A stretch of DNA of 64,000 nt from Phycisphaerales bacterium JB054 (GTDB lineage Bacteria > Planctomycetota > Phycisphaerae > Phycisphaerales > UBA1924), in assembly GCA_043100935.1 (NCBI GenBank), contig JBICHP010000016.1, positions 25,520 through 89,519 on the forward strand. Direction: 5' to 3'. The notes under the pieces were generated by a model. It ran no database searches. It saw only the letters and a list, made by a program, of their open reading frames with translations, and was not told the origin of the DNA. Shown here piece after piece: positions 2,002 through 43,983 of the stretch (the stretch's first letter is position 1; each line of letters starts with the position of its first letter). Made by a program: the position numbers and the translations under genes.

Positions 2002-3990
2002 CTAGGACCGAGCCAAAACCGTCGCCGTGAGCTCGAGCACCTCGCTGGGAAGCTGCTCGCGGTGCTCTTCCAGCCAGCGACGGTCCGCGTCTGCCCGATC
2101 ATCGCCCGGCTGCAGGTGAAGCCGGGCGGTGCGGCTGAGTGCGCCGGCGACAATCGTCCAGGGATCGTCCGCCGGGACCAGGCCCACCAGCCGGGCCGTG
2201 TTCTGATCGCCCAGTGCCGCGGCCTCCTCGAACCGCTCTGCGCGGAGCAGCCAGTACACCAGCGCCGATTCCCACAGAGCGTTCTCGACGCTGTTGCGCG
2301 TGCCGGCCTGGTCGGCGTCATGGAGGAGGTCGGACATCAGCGCGATCCGGCCCTGGACCAGTTCGGCTCCGACGCCCGGAATCGCCAGGGCACCCTTGCT
2401 GCTGAGCGATTCCAGCGAGCTGAACATCGCCAGCCACGACGTGTCGCCGTCTTTGTTCAGAAACCGGCGCGCCGTCTGGGCGAACTCACGGGTGATCTGC
2501 TGCGCCTCCTCCATCCGACGCGTCCGTTGCTCGAGCAACTGCTGCCGCTGCTGCAGTTCGAGCTGGTAACGCTGCCGTTCCATCGTGAAACGCGACTCGG
2601 CCTTCTGGGCGTCGAGACGCCACGCGGACCACATCGTCACGACTGTCGCCAGGAGCAGACCGCCCGCGGCGACCACGGCCATCGGTGACCGCCGCGTCGC
2701 CAGCGCAGCCCGCCGGGCCACCGAATCGTCGAACGGCACCACCGGCTCATAGGCCAGCCACCGCCCCAGATCCGTCGCCAGCGCATCGGCCGAGGAATGG
2801 CGATCGGCTGGATCGGGCGCAAGTGCGCGGCGGGCGATCTGGTGCAGCGTGAACTCACCCCTGCCGTAGCGGCTGCGGTCCACCTCCGGCAGCTCCGTTC
2901 GCGACGTCACGTGCTGCTGGACCTCACGCGACGTCGCCCCGTTGGGGTAGCTCCCGGTGAGCAGCCAGTAGAGCACTCCGCCGAGGGCATACACGTCCAC
3001 CGCGTTGCCGGAGCTTCCCGGCTCTCCCTGCAGCTGCTCCGGGGCGGCAAACGCCAGCGAACCACCGGACCGCAGGCTCGCCCGCGCGGCGATCTCGTCG
3101 GCCAGGCCAAAGTCGGTGATGAAGGCGGCGCCGTGCCGGTCGACGATGATGTTGTTGGGCTTGATATCTCGGTGCGCCACACCGGCGCTGTGGATCGCCT
3201 GCACACCCTCGGCGAGACGACGCACCATTGTCGCGATCTCGCGGCAGCTCGGACGCGGGCGGGTCTTGCGCCACCTGTCCAGCGACTCGCCCTCGATGAA
3301 CTCATACACCAGGAACGGCTGCTCGTAGTCGCGCTCCCAGTTCAGCAGAGACACCACCGCCGGGTGCCGCACACGCATCACCCGCGCGACCTCGTCGATC
3401 ACACGGACCGGCACCGCATCGCCGCGGCTGTGCAGAATCTTCACCGCCACCTGCAGCGGTCGGTCGCCCGTGGAGATCTGACGGTCGAACGCGCGGTACA
3501 CACTGCCCTCGCTGCCGCCGCCGACGTTCTCGACCAGCTCGTACCGCCGCTGCCCGTCCGGCAGCTCGGGCCCGAACGACACGGGCAACGCACCCAGCGA
3601 TGTGCGGGTGTTGGTCGCGACCACCGGGTTCGAGCTCGTCAGCATCGCGCGCAGCGCCATGTGCGCGCGGATCGAATCGGCAAACTCCGGAGAGTCCTCG
3701 AGCAGCGCCGCCTCGATCTCCTGCGGCGACCGGCCGCGGGCGAGCATGCCCTTCACGACAACATCGATCGCCGCGTCGAGCGCGATCGGGCGGCTCCGCA
3801 GCAGCGGGATGGCCCCGATGAGCCCGGACAGACTCATGGCGGGCACCACCGATCCCTGCTGGCCGAGATCGTGCTCGATCCGCTCGGCCAGGAGCTCGTC
3901 CTCCATGTGAGGAGAGGCCGAGGCGATTCTTGTGAGGCGATCGTCCGGGGCTTGCCTCGAGCGCGTGTCTTCCATGCGTGGGTCAGGCAT
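2002..3990 (-). CDS. Ser/Thr protein kinase with C-terminal TM and helical-repeat sensor domain
   Basis: Hanks kinase motifs: G-loop GGGSEGSVYRA, VAVKIL, HRDIKPNNIIV, DFGLA, APE. TM segment (MAVVAAGGLLLATVVTMWSAW) then a long helical domain. ATG at 3990 lies 9 nt after the sigma-factor stop. Confidence 0.9.
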   Translation of the reverse strand: MPDPRMEDTRSRQAPDDRLTRIASASPHMEDELLAERIEHDLGQQGSVVPAMSLSGLIGAIPLLRSRPIALDAAIDVVVKGMLARGRSPQEIEAALLEDSPEFADSIRAHMALRAMLTSSNPVVATNTRTSLGALPVSFGPELPDGQRRYELVENVGGGSEGSVYRAFDRQISTGDRPLQVAVKILHSRGDAVPVRVIDEVARVMRVRHPAVVSLLNWERDYEQPFLVYEFIEGESLDRWRKTRPRPSCREIATMVRRLAEGVQAIHSAGVAHRDIKPNNIIVDRHGAAFITDFGLADEIAARASLRSGGSLAFAAPEQLQGEPGSSGNAVDVYALGGVLYWLLTGSYPNGATSREVQQHVTSRTELPEVDRSRYGRGEFTLHQIARRALAPDPADRHSSADALATDLGRWLAYEPVVPFDDSVARRAALATRRSPMAVVAAGGLLLATVVTMWSAWRLDAQKAESRFTMERQRYQLELQQRQQLLEQRTRRMEEAQQITREFAQTARRFLNKDGDTSWLAMFSSLESLSSKGALAIPGVGAELVQGRIALMSDLLHDADQAGTRNSVENALWESALVYWLLRAERFEEAAALGDQNTARLVGLVPADDPWTIVAGALSRTARLHLQPGDDRADADRRWLEEHREQLPSEVLELTATVLARS

Positions 3991-3998
3991 GTGGTCCC

Positions 3999-4628
3999 CT
4001 AGTCTGCGAGTGCGTCCTGCAGTGTCTGCCGAATCCGCTGCCACCGCTTCCTCGCCATCGCGGCGTTCATGCCCAGCGACGCCCCCGCATCGGCGAGCGA
4101 CTTCCCGTGCAGCCATTGCACCAGAAGCTCTCGGTCGGCGGAGGTGGAGAGCAGGCCCAGCATGCGGTGAAGCTCTTCGGCAAACTCCTGCGGCGATCCG
4201 GAGCCGCGCTGATCGAGCCGGTCGCGCATCCCGCGGACAAACGGCGATCCCTCCGACTCGAGCGCGCGAAGCCGTGACACGATCTTCACCCGGTCGACCA
4301 GCGCGTCATTGCCGATCCGGTAGACCAACGCCCATAACTGCTGGTCGTCCTCCGCCCTGACCCGCCCGTTCTGCACGCGCTGGCACAGCCGACGCGAGAT
4401 CGTCGAGAGCAGGTCCTGCGAGTCGACCAGCCGATGCATCGACGCGCCGATCTTGCGACGAAAGTGTGAACGGATGATCGGACCGTACCGGGTCACGAAC
4501 TCTCCGACCGCTTCCGAATCACCGCCGCGAAAGCGCTTGACAAGGGAGGTCACGTCGGAGCTTTCCGGCTCCTCCGGTGTCGTTGTCTGTGCGAGTCCGG
4601 GAACTCGTTCATTGACCGAAATCTGCAC
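3999..4628 (-). CDS. ECF-type RNA polymerase sigma factor
   Basis: Region-2-like (LVKRFRGGDSEAVGEFVTRYGPIIRSHFRRK) and region-4 HTH-like (LLVQWLHGKSLADAGASLGMNAAMARKRWQRIRQTL) segments. GTG at 4628 is preceded by GGAGG (complement of 4635-4639). A longer ATG at 4709 would leave only 20 nt to the divergent gene. Confidence 0.75.
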   Translation of the reverse strand: MQISVNERVPGLAQTTTPEEPESSDVTSLVKRFRGGDSEAVGEFVTRYGPIIRSHFRRKIGASMHRLVDSQDLLSTISRRLCQRVQNGRVRAEDDQQLWALVYRIGNDALVDRVKIVSRLRALESEGSPFVRGMRDRLDQRGSGSPQEFAEELHRMLGLLSTSADRELLVQWLHGKSLADAGASLGMNAAMARKRWQRIRQTLQDALAD

Positions 4629-4729: not shown

Positions 4730-5227
4730 ATGCACAGGGCAAAGAGTGGACGTAACGCCGCGCGGCTGGCCGCCGCGTCGGCAACCGCAATAGTACTCCA
4801 TTTCGGAGCAACCGGGTCCTGCGGAGGTATTTTCCTGCCGCCAACCGGCGAGCAGATGGCGCCAGTGCCACTCGCCGTCACGGAAAGCAGGGCGGATTGG
4901 GCAGACTGGCTGGAGTTTGTGCTCATGCTCCACCGACTCGAGATGATCCTTGCCGATCCCGCAGCCGAGCCGGACGGCGACGACGACAAGATCCAGGCAG
5001 ACGCGGTCGCCCGCGCCAAAGACCAAACCACCCGTCTCGGGCAGTCCGGTCTTCGCGCAAGCCTCTCAGCGTCACAAATCGATGGGGGTTTTTCCGCAAT
5101 CGATGAACTGCGAGACACCATCTACGACCACGCGCAGAGCTTCACAGATCCCTTCTGGAACAACTATCTCCAGACACTGAACATGCTGGAAGCAGAACTC
5201 GACGACCGAGCAGCCGGGGCTGCATGA
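4730..5227 (+). CDS. Hypothetical lipoprotein/secreted protein
   Basis: ATG at 4730 with AAGGAGG at 4714-4720. Signal-like N-terminus (AARLAAASATAIVLHFGATGSCGG). Acidic, protein-like composition. Divergent from the sigma-factor gene. Confidence 0.55.
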   Translation: MHRAKSGRNAARLAAASATAIVLHFGATGSCGGIFLPPTGEQMAPVPLAVTESRADWADWLEFVLMLHRLEMILADPAAEPDGDDDKIQADAVARAKDQTTRLGQSGLRASLSASQIDGGFSAIDELRDTIYDHAQSFTDPFWNNYLQTLNMLEAELDDRAAGAA

Positions 5228-5285
5228 GCTCTTCACGCTCCCGCCGGAGCGGGTCTCTCCTCAGGAAAGGCATCGGGTATTGACC

Positions 5286-5678
5286 ATGGCAGGACGCAAG
5301 ACACCGGTCGGTGATGGCGGCGCGACAACTGGCGGGTTCTCCGGCGATGCGGGACTGCCGAAAGGCGTCAGCGCGTCGAGACGCGCCGCCGAGCGGGTCA
5401 AGTACGAGCACGACGGGATCGTCACGCTCACCGACCCCGACGGGAGCCCCATGCGCATCCTGTTCCGCGACATCTCCGAGCTGGGGGTCGGGCTGCTCTA
5501 CAGCGGGCCGATGGAGCCGGGTGCCCGCTGCGCCGTGCAACTGAAGACCCTCAGCGGCAAGGTGGTGTCGGTCCCCGCGGTGGTCATCCGGTGCCGGTCA
5601 CAATCGGAGTTCGTCAACGAGATCGGCGTGCGGTTCGACGAACCGATCAACCTGCGCGACTTCGTCCGCATCGACTGA
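5286..5678 (+). CDS. PilZ-domain protein (putative c-di-GMP receptor)
   Basis: RxxxR motif (RRAAER) and D-x-S-x-x-G motif (DISELGVG) at the spacing typical of PilZ domains. The start could also be TTG at 5280. Confidence 0.6.
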   Translation: MAGRKTPVGDGGATTGGFSGDAGLPKGVSASRRAAERVKYEHDGIVTLTDPDGSPMRILFRDISELGVGLLYSGPMEPGARCAVQLKTLSGKVVSVPAVVIRCRSQSEFVNEIGVRFDEPINLRDFVRID

Positions 5679-5909
5679 GACTTGAAGGACGGGTCGCGGG
5701 CGCACCGCCCTCCCGCGGCCCGTTAGGGAGACAGTCTTCTCGTCGCAGTCGAAACACTCGCGGACGCCGCGACCGGCCCGGCATCGGGCGCGATCCGGGC
5801 CATCCAGCGGGAACAGGGCTTTCGCGCAGCCCGTCCCGCGGCCCCGTGTCCGAGCCGCCGCCCCCTCGCAGGCACCCTTGCAGCATCTCCCGCAATCCCG
5901 CATACTGCG

Positions 5910-25482: not shown

Positions 25483-25589
25483 GCCCCGCGGTCACGAGGA
25501 GCGGACGCCCGGCACGCCGGGCCTGAGAAGCCGTCGGAGCACACCGGACGCCGAGAACACTTCCCGGACCAAGGGCGTTGGCGAACCGG

Positions 25590-25757
25590 CCATCGAACCT
25601 CGGGAGCGGGCCTTCGAACCTCGGGAGCCGGCCGTCGAAGTCCGGGAACCGACCCTCGAAGGCGGGCGACCCACCTTCGAAGATCGGGAGCCGATCTTCG
25701 AAGATGGAGAGCTGATCTTCGAAAGTCGGGAACCAACCTTCGAAGGTCGGGAACCGA
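25590..25757. repeat. Intergenic tandem array, 8 units of exactly 21 nt centred on TTCGAA/CTTCGAAG palindromes
   Basis: Units start at 25590, 25611, 25632, 25653, 25674, 25695, 25716 and 25737, with a degenerate ninth at 25758. Consensus approx CCTTCGAAGNTCGGGAGCCGA. TCGAA keeps a fixed phase in every unit. Confidence 0.9.
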
Positions 25758-25884
25758 TCTTGCGTGATACGGACCTACCTCCCGGCCCTGTGAACCCCGC
25801 GGGGGCGATCCGCCGCCGGAAGCCCGCTCGGCGCGTCCGAAAACTCCCGCCACCCGGGCGCGACCGGCCGGTATACCTCGCACA

Positions 25885-27678
25885 GTGCCGCTCCCCCAGG
25901 CCAACCTCGTCCTCTTCTTTCTCGCCGGCTTCGTCGCCCTTTGGGGCGTCAGTGTCGTTCTCCGCGGCCTCTCCGGCTCGCGTGACACCGCCAGCCGCCG
26001 CTGCCCCCAGTGCCGGGCCGACATGCTGGGCCTCACCGGCCGCCGCTGCCCCGAGTGCGCCTTCGAGGCCGCGAGCGAGCGGGACCTGCACCGCCGCCGG
26101 CCCGACCGCCGCGTCGTCGCCGTCGGCGCGCTCGCGACGGCCGTCGGCTGCGCCCTCATCCCCATCGGGATCTCCGTCCGCAGCTGGGAGACCACCGGCT
26201 ACGCCGACAACACCGACCTCCACCCGCTCAACGCGCTGTTTGCGGGCGTCACCGCGTTCGCCGTCGTGCTGCTGGTGTGGGCGGTGCGGGGCGACCGGGC
26301 CAAGGGCAGGCGTCGCTGCCCCGAGTGCTGGTACGACATGCGCGGCACGCTGCCGACGGCGGCCGTCGCGACCGATACCGCGGATGACCGCGACCAGGCT
26401 CGTGCGCCAAACCTCTTGTGCCCCGAGTGCGGCCACACCGCCGCGACCGACCGCGAGCTCTACAAACCCCGCCGCCGCCCGCGCCTCGCGCTGCTGGCCG
26501 TCGCGATTGTCTTGCTCAGCTTCTACGGCCAGACCGTGCCGCGGGCGCTGCGGACAGGCCCGCTCGGCCTCGTGCCGACGACGGTGCTGATCGGGGGGAT
26601 GCGGTGGTTGCCGGAGGCGTGGTACGTCGACGGGAGCCGCGCCAACCGGGCCACGCTCCAGGCCCGAGTCTGGGACGACGACGTGTGGGGGTGGCAGCGG
26701 GCGTGGGGCCGGGCGGCGGCACTTCGGAGCCTTGAGAGCGGGCGGTTCGTGCAGCACCCGTCCGCGGCCGCGTCCATGCTCGATGTGCAGCAGATCGACG
26801 ACCGTGAGCGCGCGATCCGGGCGACGCTCCGGCTGTTGAACGACCCGGACCGCGCCGCCGCCACCGACGACGCCACGGCGTTGCTGGAGGCGATGGGATC
26901 GCTGCTGTGGCTTCCCGGCCGCGACGTGGAGAGCACGCGGGCCGAGGAGATCCGCGGCATGGTCGCGGCCGCCGAGCCCATGCTCTCCAAGCGGGTGCGG
27001 AAGGGGACCGAGGCCGAGGCGGCCATCGCCATACAGCTCTTCTGGATGGTCGATCCGCGCGACGCGGACTGGGTCCCGGCGGTCGCCGAGCGAGCGGTGC
27101 ACGGCGGCAAGCCCACGGTGAGGATGGCGGTGGGACTGCTCATCAGCACCGCCGACTCGGACCCGCGGGCAGTGCACGCGATCGAGGCCGCGTTGTCGAG
27201 TGGGAGCTTCCCAAAGTGGGCCCAGAGCGGGCTCAGAATGTCCAATCCCGCCGTTTCGAGCGATCGGGAGGCCGACGCCTTTCTCGCGATCGTGGCGTCC
27301 TCGACCGACCCCGAGGTCGCCCGACTTGTAGCGGAGGCGTTCGTCGGGGTCTCCTTCGAGGTCGAACCGTACGCGGAGCTGATCCGGGCGGCCCGCCAGC
27401 CCGACGCGGTGCGTGCGGGCTTTGCGGAGTCCTGGGGCCTCGGAGTCTACTTGGGGGTCAAGGACGCCATCGAGCTCGTGCTCCCGGCCGCGGCCAACGC
27501 CGACCCCGAGATCCGCGATCGTGTGCTCTGGTTCCTGAAGGAACACCCCGAGCACCTCGCCCCACACCGCGACGAGATCCTGCCGGTGGTCTCCCCGCTC
27601 GCCAAGGACGAGGACAAGGTCACCGCGCAGATGGCCGCCGAGATCATGGCGGCGCTCGACGCGGCCGCGAATGACTGA
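25885..27678 (+). CDS. Membrane protein with two CPxC...CPECG zinc ribbons and C-terminal HEAT-like repeat domain
   Basis: GTG at 25885 and an N-terminal TM. Ribbon 1 is RRCPQCRADMLGLTGRRCPECAF...RRRP followed by TM. Ribbon 2 is RRRCPECWYDMRG...LLCPECGHT...KPRRRP followed by TM. The C-terminus is helical-repeat (DPEIRDRVLWFLKEHPEHL...). Confidence 0.7.
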   Translation: MPLPQANLVLFFLAGFVALWGVSVVLRGLSGSRDTASRRCPQCRADMLGLTGRRCPECAFEAASERDLHRRRPDRRVVAVGALATAVGCALIPIGISVRSWETTGYADNTDLHPLNALFAGVTAFAVVLLVWAVRGDRAKGRRRCPECWYDMRGTLPTAAVATDTADDRDQARAPNLLCPECGHTAATDRELYKPRRRPRLALLAVAIVLLSFYGQTVPRALRTGPLGLVPTTVLIGGMRWLPEAWYVDGSRANRATLQARVWDDDVWGWQRAWGRAAALRSLESGRFVQHPSAAASMLDVQQIDDRERAIRATLRLLNDPDRAAATDDATALLEAMGSLLWLPGRDVESTRAEEIRGMVAAAEPMLSKRVRKGTEAEAAIAIQLFWMVDPRDADWVPAVAERAVHGGKPTVRMAVGLLISTADSDPRAVHAIEAALSSGSFPKWAQSGLRMSNPAVSSDREADAFLAIVASSTDPEVARLVAEAFVGVSFEVEPYAELIRAARQPDAVRAGFAESWGLGVYLGVKDAIELVLPAAANADPEIRDRVLWFLKEHPEHLAPHRDEILPVVSPLAKDEDKVTAQMAAEIMAALDAAAND

Positions 27679-40030: not shown

Positions 40031-40810
40031 ATGCCCGATGTCCAGGCCCTCCCCGACACCCGCCAGGTCCCCATCGACCGCGTCGGCGTCAAAGAGGTCA
40101 CCTACCCCATGCGGCTCCACACCCGCGACGGCGGCGAGCAGCACACCGTCGCCAAGATCAACATGTACGTCGCCCTCCCGCACTACCAGAAGGGCACGCA
40201 CATGAGCCGCTTCCTCGAGGTGCTCAACGAGCACACCGGCGAGCCGGTCTGCCCCGAGCGCATCCCCGAGATCACCAAGGCCATCCGCGAACGGCTCGAA
40301 GCCAAAGAGGCCCACTTCGAGGCCGAGTTCACCTACTTCATCAACAAGCCCGCCCCCGTCACCGGCCAGAAGGGCCTGATGAACTACGAGGTCAAGTTCG
40401 CCTGCACCGCCAACGGCGACACGGACTTCATCATGTCCGTCGCCGCCCCGGCCCAGAGCCTCTGCCCCTGCTCGAAGGAGATCTCCGAGTACGGCGCCCA
40501 CAACCAGCGCTGCCGCATCGCCGCCGAGGTCCGCACCAGCAGCATGATGTGGATCGAGGACCTCGTCGAGCACCTCGAGGCCGCGGCCTCGGTCCCCGTC
40601 TTCGCCGTCCTCAAGCGCCCCGACGAGAAGTGGGTCACCGAGAAGGCCTACGAGAACCCCAAGTTCGTCGAGGACATCGTCCGCGACCTGGCCACCCGCC
40701 TCGAAGACGACACCCGCGTCGAGTGGTTCAACATCAACAGCGAGAACTTCGAGAGCATCCACTCCCACAACGCCTACGCCGAGATCACCCGCGACAAACG
40801 CGTCCAGTAG
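40031..40810 (+). CDS. folE2: GTP cyclohydrolase I type 2 (FolE2/MptA family)
   Basis: Characteristic FolE2 blocks (IDRVGVKEVTYP, KGTHMSRF, QSLCPCSKEIS, HNQR, ESIHSHNAYA). ATG at 40031. The N-terminal extension in the ORF track is rejected. Confidence 0.85.
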   Translation: MPDVQALPDTRQVPIDRVGVKEVTYPMRLHTRDGGEQHTVAKINMYVALPHYQKGTHMSRFLEVLNEHTGEPVCPERIPEITKAIRERLEAKEAHFEAEFTYFINKPAPVTGQKGLMNYEVKFACTANGDTDFIMSVAAPAQSLCPCSKEISEYGAHNQRCRIAAEVRTSSMMWIEDLVEHLEAAASVPVFAVLKRPDEKWVTEKAYENPKFVEDIVRDLATRLEDDTRVEWFNINSENFESIHSHNAYAEITRDKRVQ

Positions 40811-40908
40811 AGGCCGAACGCAGAGGCCGCAGAGGGACCGCAAAGACCGCAACGCCGCGGCGCCGCCTTCCCGGCGGTGCGATCACCGGCCGGACGCCGG
40901 TGCCACGG

Positions 40909-41032: not shown

Positions 41033-41734
41033 TCACGCCGCCAGCGCGGGCCGCGCCGCGCCACCGCCGCGCGTCCCGAAGCGGACGGTGTGCTGCGCCG
41101 GCGTCCCCCGCGCGGTCGAGCGGAGGGCGGTGATCTGGTAGGTCACGCGGCCGCCCCCGCACCCATCGGCCTCGGCGAGCGCCGCGGCGGGGATGTCGCG
41201 GTCGAGAAACTTTCGTTGGCCGACGGTGGCGACGAGCGTCATCGGCCCGCCCCCCACGCCGCCGATCGACCGCCGCACCTCGTAGACCGTCCCCTCGCTG
41301 CGCGCCGGGTTGTTGCAGTCCCACGCCAGCTCGATCGCGCCGTCCTGCAGCAGCTTGACGCGGAAGCGCGTCGGCGTGCCCGGCGGGGGCACGGCGCTGC
41401 GCGTCTTGGGCGGCGGCACCTGCGCGAGCGCGTAGACCCCGGCGTCGTCGGTCGTCTCGGCGTGGTTCTTGATCGCCGCGAGCATGTCGCTGCCCGCCCC
41501 CGGCCCGCCGTGCATCGCGGCCACCGCGTTGTGGAACCGCTCGGTCGCGGCCATCGCCGCCTGCCGCGCCGCGAGCATGTCGGCGTGGGCCTCACGCGCC
41601 TCGACGGTCAGCGCCGCGAGCTGCGTCACCGCCGGCTCGGTCAGCCCGATCGCCGCGGCGTGCGCGGCCCACGGGTCGATCCGCGTCTCGTAGAACTCGA
41701 CCTTGTCGATCGGACGGCGTGGTGTGGTGGCCAT
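41033..41734 (-). CDS. Hypothetical protein with C-terminal fibronectin-III-like domain
   Basis: ATG at 41734. Helical N-terminal half, then an FN3-like beta segment (PTRFRVKLLQDGAIELAWDCNNPARSEGTVYEVRRS...YQITALRS). The longer GTG start at 41956 would translate the 21-nt repeat array. Confidence 0.5.
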   Translation of the reverse strand: MATTPRRPIDKVEFYETRIDPWAAHAAAIGLTEPAVTQLAALTVEAREAHADMLAARQAAMAATERFHNAVAAMHGGPGAGSDMLAAIKNHAETTDDAGVYALAQVPPPKTRSAVPPPGTPTRFRVKLLQDGAIELAWDCNNPARSEGTVYEVRRSIGGVGGGPMTLVATVGQRKFLDRDIPAAALAEADGCGGGRVTYQITALRSTARGTPAQHTVRFGTRGGGAARPALAA

Positions 41735-41827
41735 GCGTGGAGGGGTCGGCCGCCCCGCACGAGACCTTGACCCCGACCGACAAACCCGCCCCAAACCGGC
41801 AGGAATTGCCGGAGAAACTCCGCGTGT

Positions 41828-41995
41828 CACCCGTTCCCGACGCCTGAGAACCCGTGACGGGTCACCCGTCACGGGTTCTCCGCGGCCGGTCACGGGTGAT
41901 CTGCGGCCGCGCACGGGTGCCCGGTCGCCGCGAACGGGTGCGATGCGGCGATGCACGGGTGTTCCGACGTCGCGGAAGGGTGAACGGTGGCCGAG
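41828..41995. repeat. Intergenic array of 8 units phased at 21 nt built on CACGGGTG / CACCCGT, containing a perfect 35-nt palindrome (41846-41880)
   Basis: Motif starts at 41828 (cacccgt), 41849 (aacccgt), 41870, 41891, 41912, 41933, 41954 (c/aacgggtg) and 41975 (gaagggtg), all exactly 21 nt apart. GAGAACCCGTGACGGGT-C-ACCCGTCACGGGTTCTC is self-complementary. Confidence 0.9.
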
Positions 41996-42240
41996 AACAG
42001 GCCACCGGCGAGCGCAGCGGCATCACTGCGCGGGGAGGAAAGGAGAGGTGGAGGAGAGGGGGGAGGCCGCGAGTGATGGCACCCGGGGATTTGGGCCGCC
42101 CGCCGCTGGCTCGCTAAGGGCAACCTCATTCGCGATCTGTCACCGCGAAGTAACGGCCGCTCTCACGGGCGTTCGCGATCTTCGAAGATGCCTGTAGAGT
42201 GCCGAAGAGGTCACACCCACTCGGATTGAAAGGTATCGTC

Positions 42241-43080
42241 ATGGATACGCCCAAGTTCGGTTTGTACCGGTTTGTGCTGGTTGTTGCAGCACACGCTGCC
42301 AGCGTGTTGTCCGCAGCCGCGCAGGTGGATTTGCAACTCCACCTGAAGATCATCGCCGAGCCCAAGATCGAAACCCGCGATTACTACGACAGGCCTGCAC
42401 CCGAATCCGAGCTTGTGTCCAAGATCGAGATCCGTCGAGGCGAGCCCGTTTCACTCCGATTCCGGCTTGAGAATGTGGGGAGCGAAACGGTCTACATGAC
42501 ACAGTTTCTGAGCCTGCGCTATCCGGAAGACGTCGGTCTCAACGTCACATGGCCCGATGGCAGAACACGAGATGTTCCGGTTGGACCCCGCACAGTGCGG
42601 TGCGGCCGCGGCGGGGCTTCAGTCGGTCTTCTGGCTGGCGAATCCAGCACTTCCGATTCGTTTGTCTTCGAGTATTGGTACAGAACACCCGCCACCGTCG
42701 AATACAAGTATGTATTCGACGAGCCAGGTACGTACCAGGTGACAGCACACTTTCGCAGGCGGAACCCTTATCCCAGAACCGATCAGGTCACGCAGACAGA
42801 TGAGGCAGACGAAAGCGCCAATACCTTTGTCTCTGCTCCGGTGACCGTCACTGTCCTGCCCGAGCAACTGCCCGACTGGGAAGCACTGGTGGCTCACGGC
42901 ATACTCCGGTACATCCGTTCTTCGTACATCGAAATGAGCAAAGTCGCGCCGGAACTCGCCCGTATCGTCGCCGCCACCGATGCGCACTGGCTCAAAGTCT
43001 GGGCCGGCTGGCCCATCTATCGTCCCCAGCCTTCTCGGGAGGAAAGCACGCAGCCCAAGCCCGAAACATCCGGCAGGTGA
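42241..43080 (+). CDS. Secreted hypothetical protein (beta-sandwich-like), in a lower-GC segment
   Basis: ATG at 42241 and signal peptide (FVLVVAAHAASVLSAAAQ). Balanced amino-acid composition with many Lys/Tyr/Ile/Phe codons that are unusual for this window. No recognisable motif. Confidence 0.6.
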   Translation: MDTPKFGLYRFVLVVAAHAASVLSAAAQVDLQLHLKIIAEPKIETRDYYDRPAPESELVSKIEIRRGEPVSLRFRLENVGSETVYMTQFLSLRYPEDVGLNVTWPDGRTRDVPVGPRTVRCGRGGASVGLLAGESSTSDSFVFEYWYRTPATVEYKYVFDEPGTYQVTAHFRRRNPYPRTDQVTQTDEADESANTFVSAPVTVTVLPEQLPDWEALVAHGILRYIRSSYIEMSKVAPELARIVAATDAHWLKVWAGWPIYRPQPSREESTQPKPETSGR

Positions 43081-43636: not shown

Positions 43637-43983
43637 CACAAGGCCTCCCTTTCGTGCCCTTCGCGCCCTTCGTGTTCAAAGACGCCCCCTTCCCCCCGCC
43701 GCGCCGCCGAAGCCCACGCTTGCGCGTTGGGCCTCTTTCCTTGGCGTCCTTGACATCCCCTCTTTGCGTCCTCTGCGTCCCCTCCGCGGCCTCTGCGTTC
43801 TGCCTCCCCTCCGATTCCTCCATGCCCCCTCCGCGCCTCCGCGTTCTCCCCGGCTCTTGCGCTCCGGGCTCTGCCGCCGATTCGCAACCCTCCGCCCCCG
43901 ACCCGCCGATCCATACCATCAGCCAGCAGCGTGCCCCCGGGCGCGCCCCCAGGACAGGGCAGACGGCACACGGAGGGCCACAC

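Follow-up and report, generated by a model that had tools for sequence, protein, structure and literature searches.

Arrays upstream of a promoter in which weak and strong sites are spaced by two helical turns, and hence face the same side of the DNA, are a familiar arrangement for bacterial activators and repressors. The ARG boxes of ArgR are phased operator sites as well, consisting of 18-bp palindromes with centres 21 bp apart. Direct repeats of comparable spacing occur in the iterons of theta plasmids such as pPS10, P1, F and RK2, where five to ten repeats of 17-22 bp with a period of about 21-22 bp are accompanied by an inverted-repeat operator. The centromere arrays of type II and type III partition systems (R1 and pSK41 parC, tubC) and the heptads of the pSM19035 omega repressor are bound cooperatively and lie upstream of the operon that is regulated. 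Phased multi-site arrays have been described for BvgA~P at the ptx promoter (PMC7250471), and the P2 C repressor provides a further case on direct repeats (PMC2995052).

Gene regulation in the Planctomycetota is still very poorly understood. We analysed a stretch of 64,000 nucleotides (the window; C16:25520-89519) from a 3.98-Mb genome of 68% GC, referred to here as G000, in which a short motif recurs at a strict interval of 21 nt between two divergent genes. The features of the locus, together with a second array in the same window, are the following.

41828..41982, no strand: 21-bp-period array with eight lattice positions of the 8-bp quasi-palindrome (C/A)AC(GG/CC)GT(G)
41846..41880, no strand: perfect 35-nt palindrome GAGAACCCGTGACGGGT-C-ACCCGTCACGGGTTCTC, the symmetry centre of the array
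41840..41857, plus strand: box GACGCCTGAGAACCCGTG, which matches the family-wide element aCGCCCGA(G/T)AAC and forms the left arm of the 35-nt palindrome
41796..41812, minus strand: inverted repeat CCGGCA-N5-TGCCGG followed by TTTGGGG (minus-strand reading), between the array and the gene
41033..41734, minus strand: family gene encoding 233 aa, with a helical N-domain (8-103), a PPPGTP linker, an FN3 domain (122-220) and a C-terminal ...ALAA
42018..42086, no strand: REP-like dispersed element that includes a polypurine tract, separate from the array
25583..25761, no strand: second 21-nt array of the window, core TTCGAAGATCGG, of the same element class and with no adjoining family gene

Anatomy of the array and its surroundings

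Intact ACGGGT/ACCCGT hexamers are found in the array at 41829(-), 41850(-), 41857(+), 41864(-), 41871(+), 41892(+), 41913(+), 41934(+) and 41955(+). All but two of these define an exact 21-nt lattice (41829, 41850, 41871, 41892, 41913, 41934, 41955), which is continued by a degenerate AAGGGT at 41976, and the two off-lattice hexamers lie at +7 and +14, on a 7-nt sub-lattice used only by the two central palindromes. The hexamer search thus recovers the eight motif positions, 21 nt apart, of an earlier sequence-only reading of this DNA, the last of them in degenerate form, and the sequence bears out the placement of the array in the 506-nt gap that separates the minus-strand ATG at 41734 from the plus-strand ATG at 42241. 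Over the window as a whole the hexamer is no commoner than expected (35 occurrences, compared with 34 +/- 6 in shuffled sequences), and nine of the 35 fall within 41829-41960; a hand Poisson estimate puts the probability of at least nine hexamers in 132 nt at about 1e-16. At lag 21 the self-identity of the array is 0.68, as against 0.39 or less at lags 19, 20, 22 and 23. Tandem Repeats Finder reports only 2.5 copies because the spacers vary. The array also passes a filter for lag-7 identity below 0.6, so a 7-nt tandem period of the STRR type is absent.

The units run in the order of two CC forms, the double palindrome, four GG forms and one degenerate unit, GAAGGGTG. Each unit is a quasi-palindrome, CAC-SS-GTG, and for this reason the orientation switch described previously, although correctly observed, amounts to no more than GG or CC at the unit centres, with the lattice itself unchanged. 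The 35-nt palindrome is indeed perfect, as had been claimed. It is composed of two 13-bp palindromes, ACCCGTsACGGGT, at 41850-41862 and 41864-41876 (spaced 14 nt), and extends imperfectly to 43-nt arms with 79% complementarity. The predicted single-strand fold of 41815-41995 has an energy of -64.7 kcal/mol (z = -5.7). A consensus scan for sigma-70-like promoters gave none, and the one terminator-like hairpin detected is inside the 42241 gene. Inspection by eye for a sigma-54 spacing (GG-N8-GC here, where N10 is needed) and for an ECF-type GAAC-N15-17-CGT spacing yielded nothing that was upheld across loci, and the only Rfam matches to the array are spurious miRNA look-alikes, far below thresholds, that are caused by the palindrome.

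Other repeats are found close to the array. The polypurine tract that had been noted beyond it is real but does not belong to the array; it is part of the dispersed element at 42018-42086, about 68 nt long, which is present in dozens of copies with 77-91% identity in G000 and its congeners. The ends of this element are inverted (GCATCACTGCGCGG...CCGCGAGTGATGGC). A second dispersed element, of the CTCTGCGTCC type, occurs as 43-nt inverted copies with 84% complementarity at 40810-40852 and 43764-43806, which bracket a 2.9-kb block containing the family gene, the array and a low-GC gene, and an element of this type is also found distal to the array on contig C36. The low-GC gene is the divergent one at 42241-43080 (about 58% GC, compared with 68% for the genome), which encodes a hydrophobic, signal-peptide-like N-terminus and has no family match. 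Hairpins of a further dispersed family, GCCACGGGTGGCTTTGCACCCGTGC, often occur in pairs (G000:C14:258686, C33:93856, C36:60889, C23:28770, C7:102365). These have the ACGGGT hexamer in common with the array by chance and are otherwise unrelated to it.

The array had been taken to be unrelated to the other array of the window and to stand alone. This view is not sustained. Arrays with the TTCGAAG core of the 25583-25761 array occur elsewhere, at G000:C36:12269 and, in the related genome G003, upstream of a fragmented copy of the family gene (L049). Since this motif precedes a family-gene fragment in a congener, both window arrays belong to one class. The type of array at 41828 goes together with the left-hand gene. 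The suspicion that two arrays of equal period in one window are no coincidence proved well founded, as the genome contains 21 lag-21 stretches compared with 2-3 for lags 20 and 22. Several gene-less 21-nt arrays adjoin genes for proteins with CxxC...(Y)DL/SLxG...CPECG zinc-ribbon motifs, which may be due to chance, given that this paralogue family is abundant. The zinc-ribbon neighbours are located as follows.

Window: 25885-27678
G000:C36: 12665-13039
L001: about 3830-4625
L010: about 4960-5684

Heptamer arrays of GGGCAAT/ATTGCCC were seen near two of the 21-nt arrays, at L001 (G000:C28) 1718-1776 and at about 82640-82720 of G000:C27. The one on C27 stands between the 21-nt array of that contig and its gene.

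A multicopy gene family and its arrays

The gene to the left of the array is chromosomal and lies between folE2 and mrdA. Its homologues in the database (129) are about 215-245 aa long and carry the names of Phycisphaerales. In the AlphaFold2 model of the protein (mean pLDDT 89.7), a Pro-rich linker connects an FN3 domain to a helical N-domain, one helix of which is 44 residues long. Searches of Pfam, PHROGs, PADLOC and NCBIfam gave no match, and Foldseek searches of the PDB and BFVD, together with a PDB sequence profile, returned generic FN3 domains only. The model contains no recognisable DNA-binding fold or Rep winged helix, and the N-domain is not basic by a hand count. The C-terminus reads ...K(M/L)AA (window 41033-41038), the last two residues being Ala-Ala in at least 90% of 59 aligned sequences, and we take this ending to resemble an ssrA-like ClpXP degron. 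A short hydrophobic stretch, GLTIASV, directly precedes this ending.

The family is patchy and multicopy in the Phycisphaerae. There are 4 copies in G000, 12 each in G005 and G015 and 33 in G006, compared with none in three congeners, and a class-wide survey found the family in 17 of 151 genomes, with up to at least 19 copies each. Some copies carry in-frame stops. No homologues were found in plasmid and phage collections. The neighbourhoods of the four paralogous loci in G000 (+/-8 kb) have no gene in common beyond unrelated PEP-CTERM-type tails; at these loci a solitary gene lies downstream of the array, and no regulator gene is kept beside it. Of the metagenomic contexts of the family, one is phage- or island-like and another is ordinary metabolism, so that no neighbourhood pattern emerges.

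All four family copies of G000 have a lag-21 array within 900 nt upstream, and the four cores are all different.

Window: ACGGGT
C36: CATCTGCTC
C14: TCTCTTGGCC
C27: GCTSAYGCTCTTG

By a uniform criterion there are merely 18 lag-21 array loci across the 3.98 Mb, and finding arrays at four of four genes is therefore improbable by chance (about 5.5e-10). In G003, G005, G006, G007, G015 and JB041, which belong to this genus and a neighbouring one, about 20 of 31 family loci carry an array of period 21 or 42. In a third genus, represented by G103, arrays are present in 8 of 18 upstream regions and in 0 of 18 downstream controls (Fisher about 0.003, by our own estimate). Distant family members on metagenomic contigs carry short arrays. 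The period of every array found is 21 or 42 while the core motifs differ, and lags of 19, 20, 22 and 23 are at background. About a third to a half of the family loci have no array, including the G006 counterpart (80% identical) of the C36 paralogue, and the arrays at C28, C30, C36:12269 and window position 25583 have no gene. Family copies that are usually preceded by their own 21-bp-period array with a private core are apparently an undescribed pattern in the Phycisphaerae, and we found nothing in the full-text literature connecting 21-bp repeats with Planctomycetes or Phycisphaerae. Many of the family genes lie 200-600 nt from the ends of draft contigs (e.g. G043:C6:300, G056:C4:412, G116:C14:390), apparently because the repeats flanking them on both sides break the assemblies.

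The arrays share a common anatomy of 7-16 units, each with a conserved core of 8-12 nt and a variable spacer. In this genus and the neighbouring genus, the gene-proximal end of the array is often closed by the aCGCCCGA(G/T)AAC box; within G000 this holds for three of the four family loci, and the box is found at C28 as well. At three or more loci the box is followed by a CGGCA-N5-TGCCG inverted repeat and a T-run, the inverted repeat being present after the box in L012 and at C28 in addition to its occurrence in the window. The leader from array to start codon measures 90-400 nt. The best dyad arms within a unit exceed shuffled controls in 17 of 19 arrays, few of which are individually significant. 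Each of the G000 motifs recurs at a second, gene-less locus: motif A (that of the window array) at C28, motif B at C30 and motif E at C27:38. In some arrays (L012, L013/L021, L024) the variation between units peaks at every third position, and in one antisense frame of L012 the single-base changes are 11 synonymous and 5 non-synonymous.

Conservation, inversions and coding status

A search of the genome for the motif, a check of the kind suggested with the sequence-only reading, located a second ACGGGT array at C28:1876-2007. This array is gene-less and has a longer orthologous counterpart in the G003 chromosome (CP053450.1). The double palindrome is repeated at G000:C28:1981-2007 and is present in G003 and in JB041; public scans for it gave a match in CP053450.1 only. 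Its 13-bp component occurs three times in the genome, in each case inside one of the two arrays, and motif A is limited to two loci, unlike REP/BIME elements. Between G000 and G003, 241 nt of non-coding sequence at C28 align without gaps at 96% identity, whereas the flanking genes are 86-88% identical. This stretch runs from the proximal array through the double palindrome, box and hairpin to REP-like sequence next to them. We count by eye a single difference in the first 113 nt or so of this stretch. The number of units at C28 is about 6 in G000 and about 12 in G003. At the C36 locus, the array units match those of G003 one-to-one. Paralogues at 66-71% protein identity keep cores of 8-9 nt (CGTCCACG in L104/L105, TTCTGTAGC in L118/L119), and those under about 60% generally have cores with no relation to each other. 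The arrays appear, from these comparisons, to be under constraint. The conservation seen in related genomes, in JB041 for the window array and in G003 for C28, speaks against the neutral minisatellite that the sequence-only reading had named as its alternative.

The closest relative, 'Phycisphaerales bacterium JB041', has the same synteny, a folE2 gene that is 97.3% identical, and the same array. Two segments of this array are inverted between the genomes.

41828..41895, no strand: central segment, 97% identical over 68 nt when reversed, with breakpoints in the inverted hexamers at 41829 and 41892
41923..41993, no strand: distal segment, 94% identical over 71 nt, containing two ACGGGT units and the degenerate unit

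By a hand count, the hexamers of JB041 all remain on one 21-nt lattice. In JB041 the box is directed towards the family gene, in the window away from it. This gene has only 88% identity between the two genomes, and its three codon positions diverge about equally (0.887, 0.896, 0.852). The JB041 contig ends inside the array, and the inversions could for this reason be an assembly artefact.

The sequence-only reading had also considered that translation might begin at the GTG at 41956, in which case the array would encode an Arg-rich heptad extension of the left-hand protein. This is ruled out by the alignment of 59 homologues, about 215-245 aa long, all of which begin where the ATG at 41734 does and have MGVVPxxRLGKIEFYEAH as their common N-terminus from Met1 onwards, and the inversion of array sub-segments in JB041 argues against it as well. 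A coding heptad repeat in any form, whether such an extension or a separate small ORF on either strand, is in our judgement almost certainly not the explanation, even though 21 nt corresponds to seven codons, several frames across the array are open and an excess of third-position or synonymous-like changes is seen at a few other loci, such as the antisense frame of L012. Stop maps and counts of synonymous and non-synonymous changes give no consistent frame on either strand. The window array has no frame with a synonymous excess (the best has 4 synonymous to 6 non-synonymous changes) and a GC3 of about 0.7, compared with more than 0.9 in real genes of this genome; in the L016 array every one of the six frames is interrupted by stops, and further arrays have open frames on opposite strands only. 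The translated flanks resemble non-coding GC-rich sequence, with no common conserved domain. On the evidence of reading frames and composition, the arrays as a class are non-coding.

Possible functions and comparison with known systems

We tentatively suggest, allowing it somewhat less than an even chance, that the array is a phased, one-face protein-binding platform, operator- or enhancer-like, situated immediately upstream of the promoter region of the 41033-41734 gene. The 8-bp quasi-palindromes CAC-SS-GTG are spaced by exactly two helical turns, which would place all of the sites on one face of the DNA. A dimeric, sequence-specific protein would probably nucleate with high affinity at the two central 13-bp palindromes, from which the weaker flanking units could be filled cooperatively, so that about 150 bp would be taken up in a nucleoprotein filament or wrap. 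We infer that such a filament would set the expression of the adjacent family gene. A separate regulator may be the putative binder; the product of the adjacent gene is a less likely candidate. Applied to the family, the design would usually provide a member with its own array, a private core and, typically in this genus, a gene-side box, CGCCCGAkAAC. A platform of this kind would fit the strict two-turn period, the conserved cores and free spacers, the central dyads, the position by the box, and the conservation above that of flanking coding sequence. Against it, the many different cores would need many binders. A weakness is that neither a binder nor a conserved regulator adjacent to the arrays was found at the four loci, and that arrays and genes also occur apart. 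The weak 3-nt periodicity of variation in some arrays, for which we have no explanation, counts against the platform as well.

A more far-reaching version, which we regard as unlikely, is that gene and array form a two-part module, in which the private 21-bp-period 'address' would be read by the cognate fast-evolving, probably protease-tagged helical and FN3 protein or by a partner of it. If this were the case, recognition would be self-specifying, and might serve to autoregulate or silence individual paralogues, to anchor DNA, or to make contingency expression stochastic via inversion. Arrays that bear the same address but have no gene would then be further targets.

Alternatively, the array might act through its DNA architecture with no specific binder. 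Repeats of 21 bp (2 x 10.5) would add intrinsic bends in phase, creating a planar curved or wrappable element that modulates the promoter directly or via nucleoid proteins, with units that drift and are homogenised within each array. The period that stays strictly at 21 or 42 while motifs vary by locus, the exact preservation of the lattice through the JB041 inversions and the failure to find a cognate regulator would all be expected of such an element. We nevertheless consider it improbable, as a contiguous core of 8-10 nt is kept within an array whose spacers are variable, a pattern more indicative of site recognition than of homogenisation of whole units; moreover, the same cores recur at second loci and across genera (e.g. 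TTCGAAG, CGTCCACG), and the best-conserved part of C28 is the palindrome, box and hairpin and not the periodic part. Equally doubtful in our view is a selfish or tolerated repeat, a minisatellite or REP/BIME-like filler that would be inherited with the gene family and have no function. The genome is rich in intergenic repeats, among them the 42018-42086 element, CTCTGCG elements and the GGGCAAT heptamers, and the different unit numbers at C28, the family loci that have no array and the contigs that often break at arrays could be read in the same way. A functionless repeat would, however, hardly be more conserved than flanking coding sequence, as the C28 stretch is, or retain the one-to-one match of units seen between C36 and G003. 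Nor would it readily account for cores still shared by paralogues so diverged that saturation of their silent sites must be assumed, for a position that is fixed relative to gene and box and confined to the upstream side, or for a motif A that, unlike REPs, is present at only two loci in the genome.

The JB041 comparison raises the further idea of an invertible, phase-variable switch. Recombination between inverted units would flip segments that include the box and thereby alter the expression of the family gene, of the divergent low-GC gene at 42241 or of both, the family then being a set of contingency loci. Genomes with nearly identical folE2 differ by the inversion of two sub-segments, with breakpoints inside inverted units and an undisturbed lattice, and the box changes its direction relative to the family gene. 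This gene also diverges faster than its neighbour (88% versus 97% identity) and about equally at all codon positions, in a family that is patchy, multicopy and interrupted by stops in some of its members. We give a switch only a slender chance, since the core is palindromic and inversion would alter just a few flanking bases; in addition, most other arrays are purely direct repeats, and the JB041 contig ends inside the array. The two orientations come from two different genomes. A comparison of the surroundings for shared genes gave no neighbour, and so no linked recombinase, common to the four paralogous loci within +/-8 kb; a recombinase acting from a distance would be compatible with this. 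Finally, the array could be an RNA element, transcribed as a leader or small RNA that binds a protein as a sponge or attenuator, with CCGGCA-N5-TGCCGG and its U-run serving as a terminator or 5' stabiliser. The strong predicted fold (z = -5.7), the hairpin and T-run between array and gene and the length of the leaders would suit this idea. It seems to us very unlikely, as in many cores the 8 nt form a perfect palindrome that leaves no room for a loop (TTGCGCAA, GCACGTGC, TTGGCCAA), as suits duplex DNA and not hairpins, the small hairpin has no compensatory changes, and the Rfam matches are spurious and sub-threshold. The protein-binding platform is the reading that we prefer.

These arrays represent a testable class of cis-element, in which 7-16 units with a private core are spaced by exactly two helical turns and share a terminal box within the genus. 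The class is linked to one conserved, uncharacterised family that reaches 15-33 copies in genomes of 3-4 Mb. If the arrays are binding platforms, a single genome would offer natural variants of the motif by the dozen within one architecture, and would be unusually well suited to studying how binding specificity and cooperative phasing co-evolve. The arrays also explain contig breaks in these assemblies, and they call for caution in annotating heptad-repeat ORFs there.

The comparison with known systems does not assign the array to any of the described classes of repeat that we considered, as the iteron, centromere, ARG-box, REP and coding-repeat classes each fail at least one of the defining features tested. 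Like iterons, the array places direct repeats of period 21 beside an inverted repeat of the same half-sites just upstream of a gene, and the product of that gene may be a ClpXP substrate. Unlike iterons, it is chromosomal, by folE2 and mrdA, and belongs to a family with 4-33 copies per genome that is absent from plasmid and phage collections; the adjacent protein does not have the winged-helix fold of a Rep, and neither DnaA boxes nor an AT-rich unwinding element can be made out. An iteron-type origin was rejected, for although the repeat geometry agrees, there is neither a Rep initiator nor a mobile replicon. With the parC, tubC and omega arrays it has in common short direct and inverted repeats on a fixed lattice upstream of a gene. 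It differs from them in having no ParM, ParA or TubZ NTPase and no small ribbon-helix-helix or helix-turn-helix protein nearby, and in a period of 21 bp in place of contiguous sites of 7-12 or 20 bp. A partition centromere was likewise set aside, in view of the solitary gene downstream and the lack of a neighbour common to the four paralogous loci.

REP/BIME elements and STRR-type heptamers resemble the array in being intergenic, repetitive and partly palindromic and in occupying repeat-rich spacers, whereas the array has a period of 21 and not 7, two loci for its motif, a place on the upstream side of a gene family and cores that are conserved across species. A neutral minisatellite or VNTR would account for the change in copy number at C28 but not for the constraint on this stretch (96% compared with 86-88%). 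The palindromes of the array are 13 bp long (ACCCGTsACGGGT), 14 bp apart and GC-rich, and on this basis they were not accepted as ARG boxes. The array motif matches no known consensus, in which it departs from phased regulator arrays in general. Like the BvgA~P, P2 C and ArgR arrays, it combines stronger dyads with weaker flanking half-sites, a design that would imply cooperative filling; unlike them, it belongs to a class with up to 16 units, a private motif at each paralogous locus and units that can take either orientation on the lattice.
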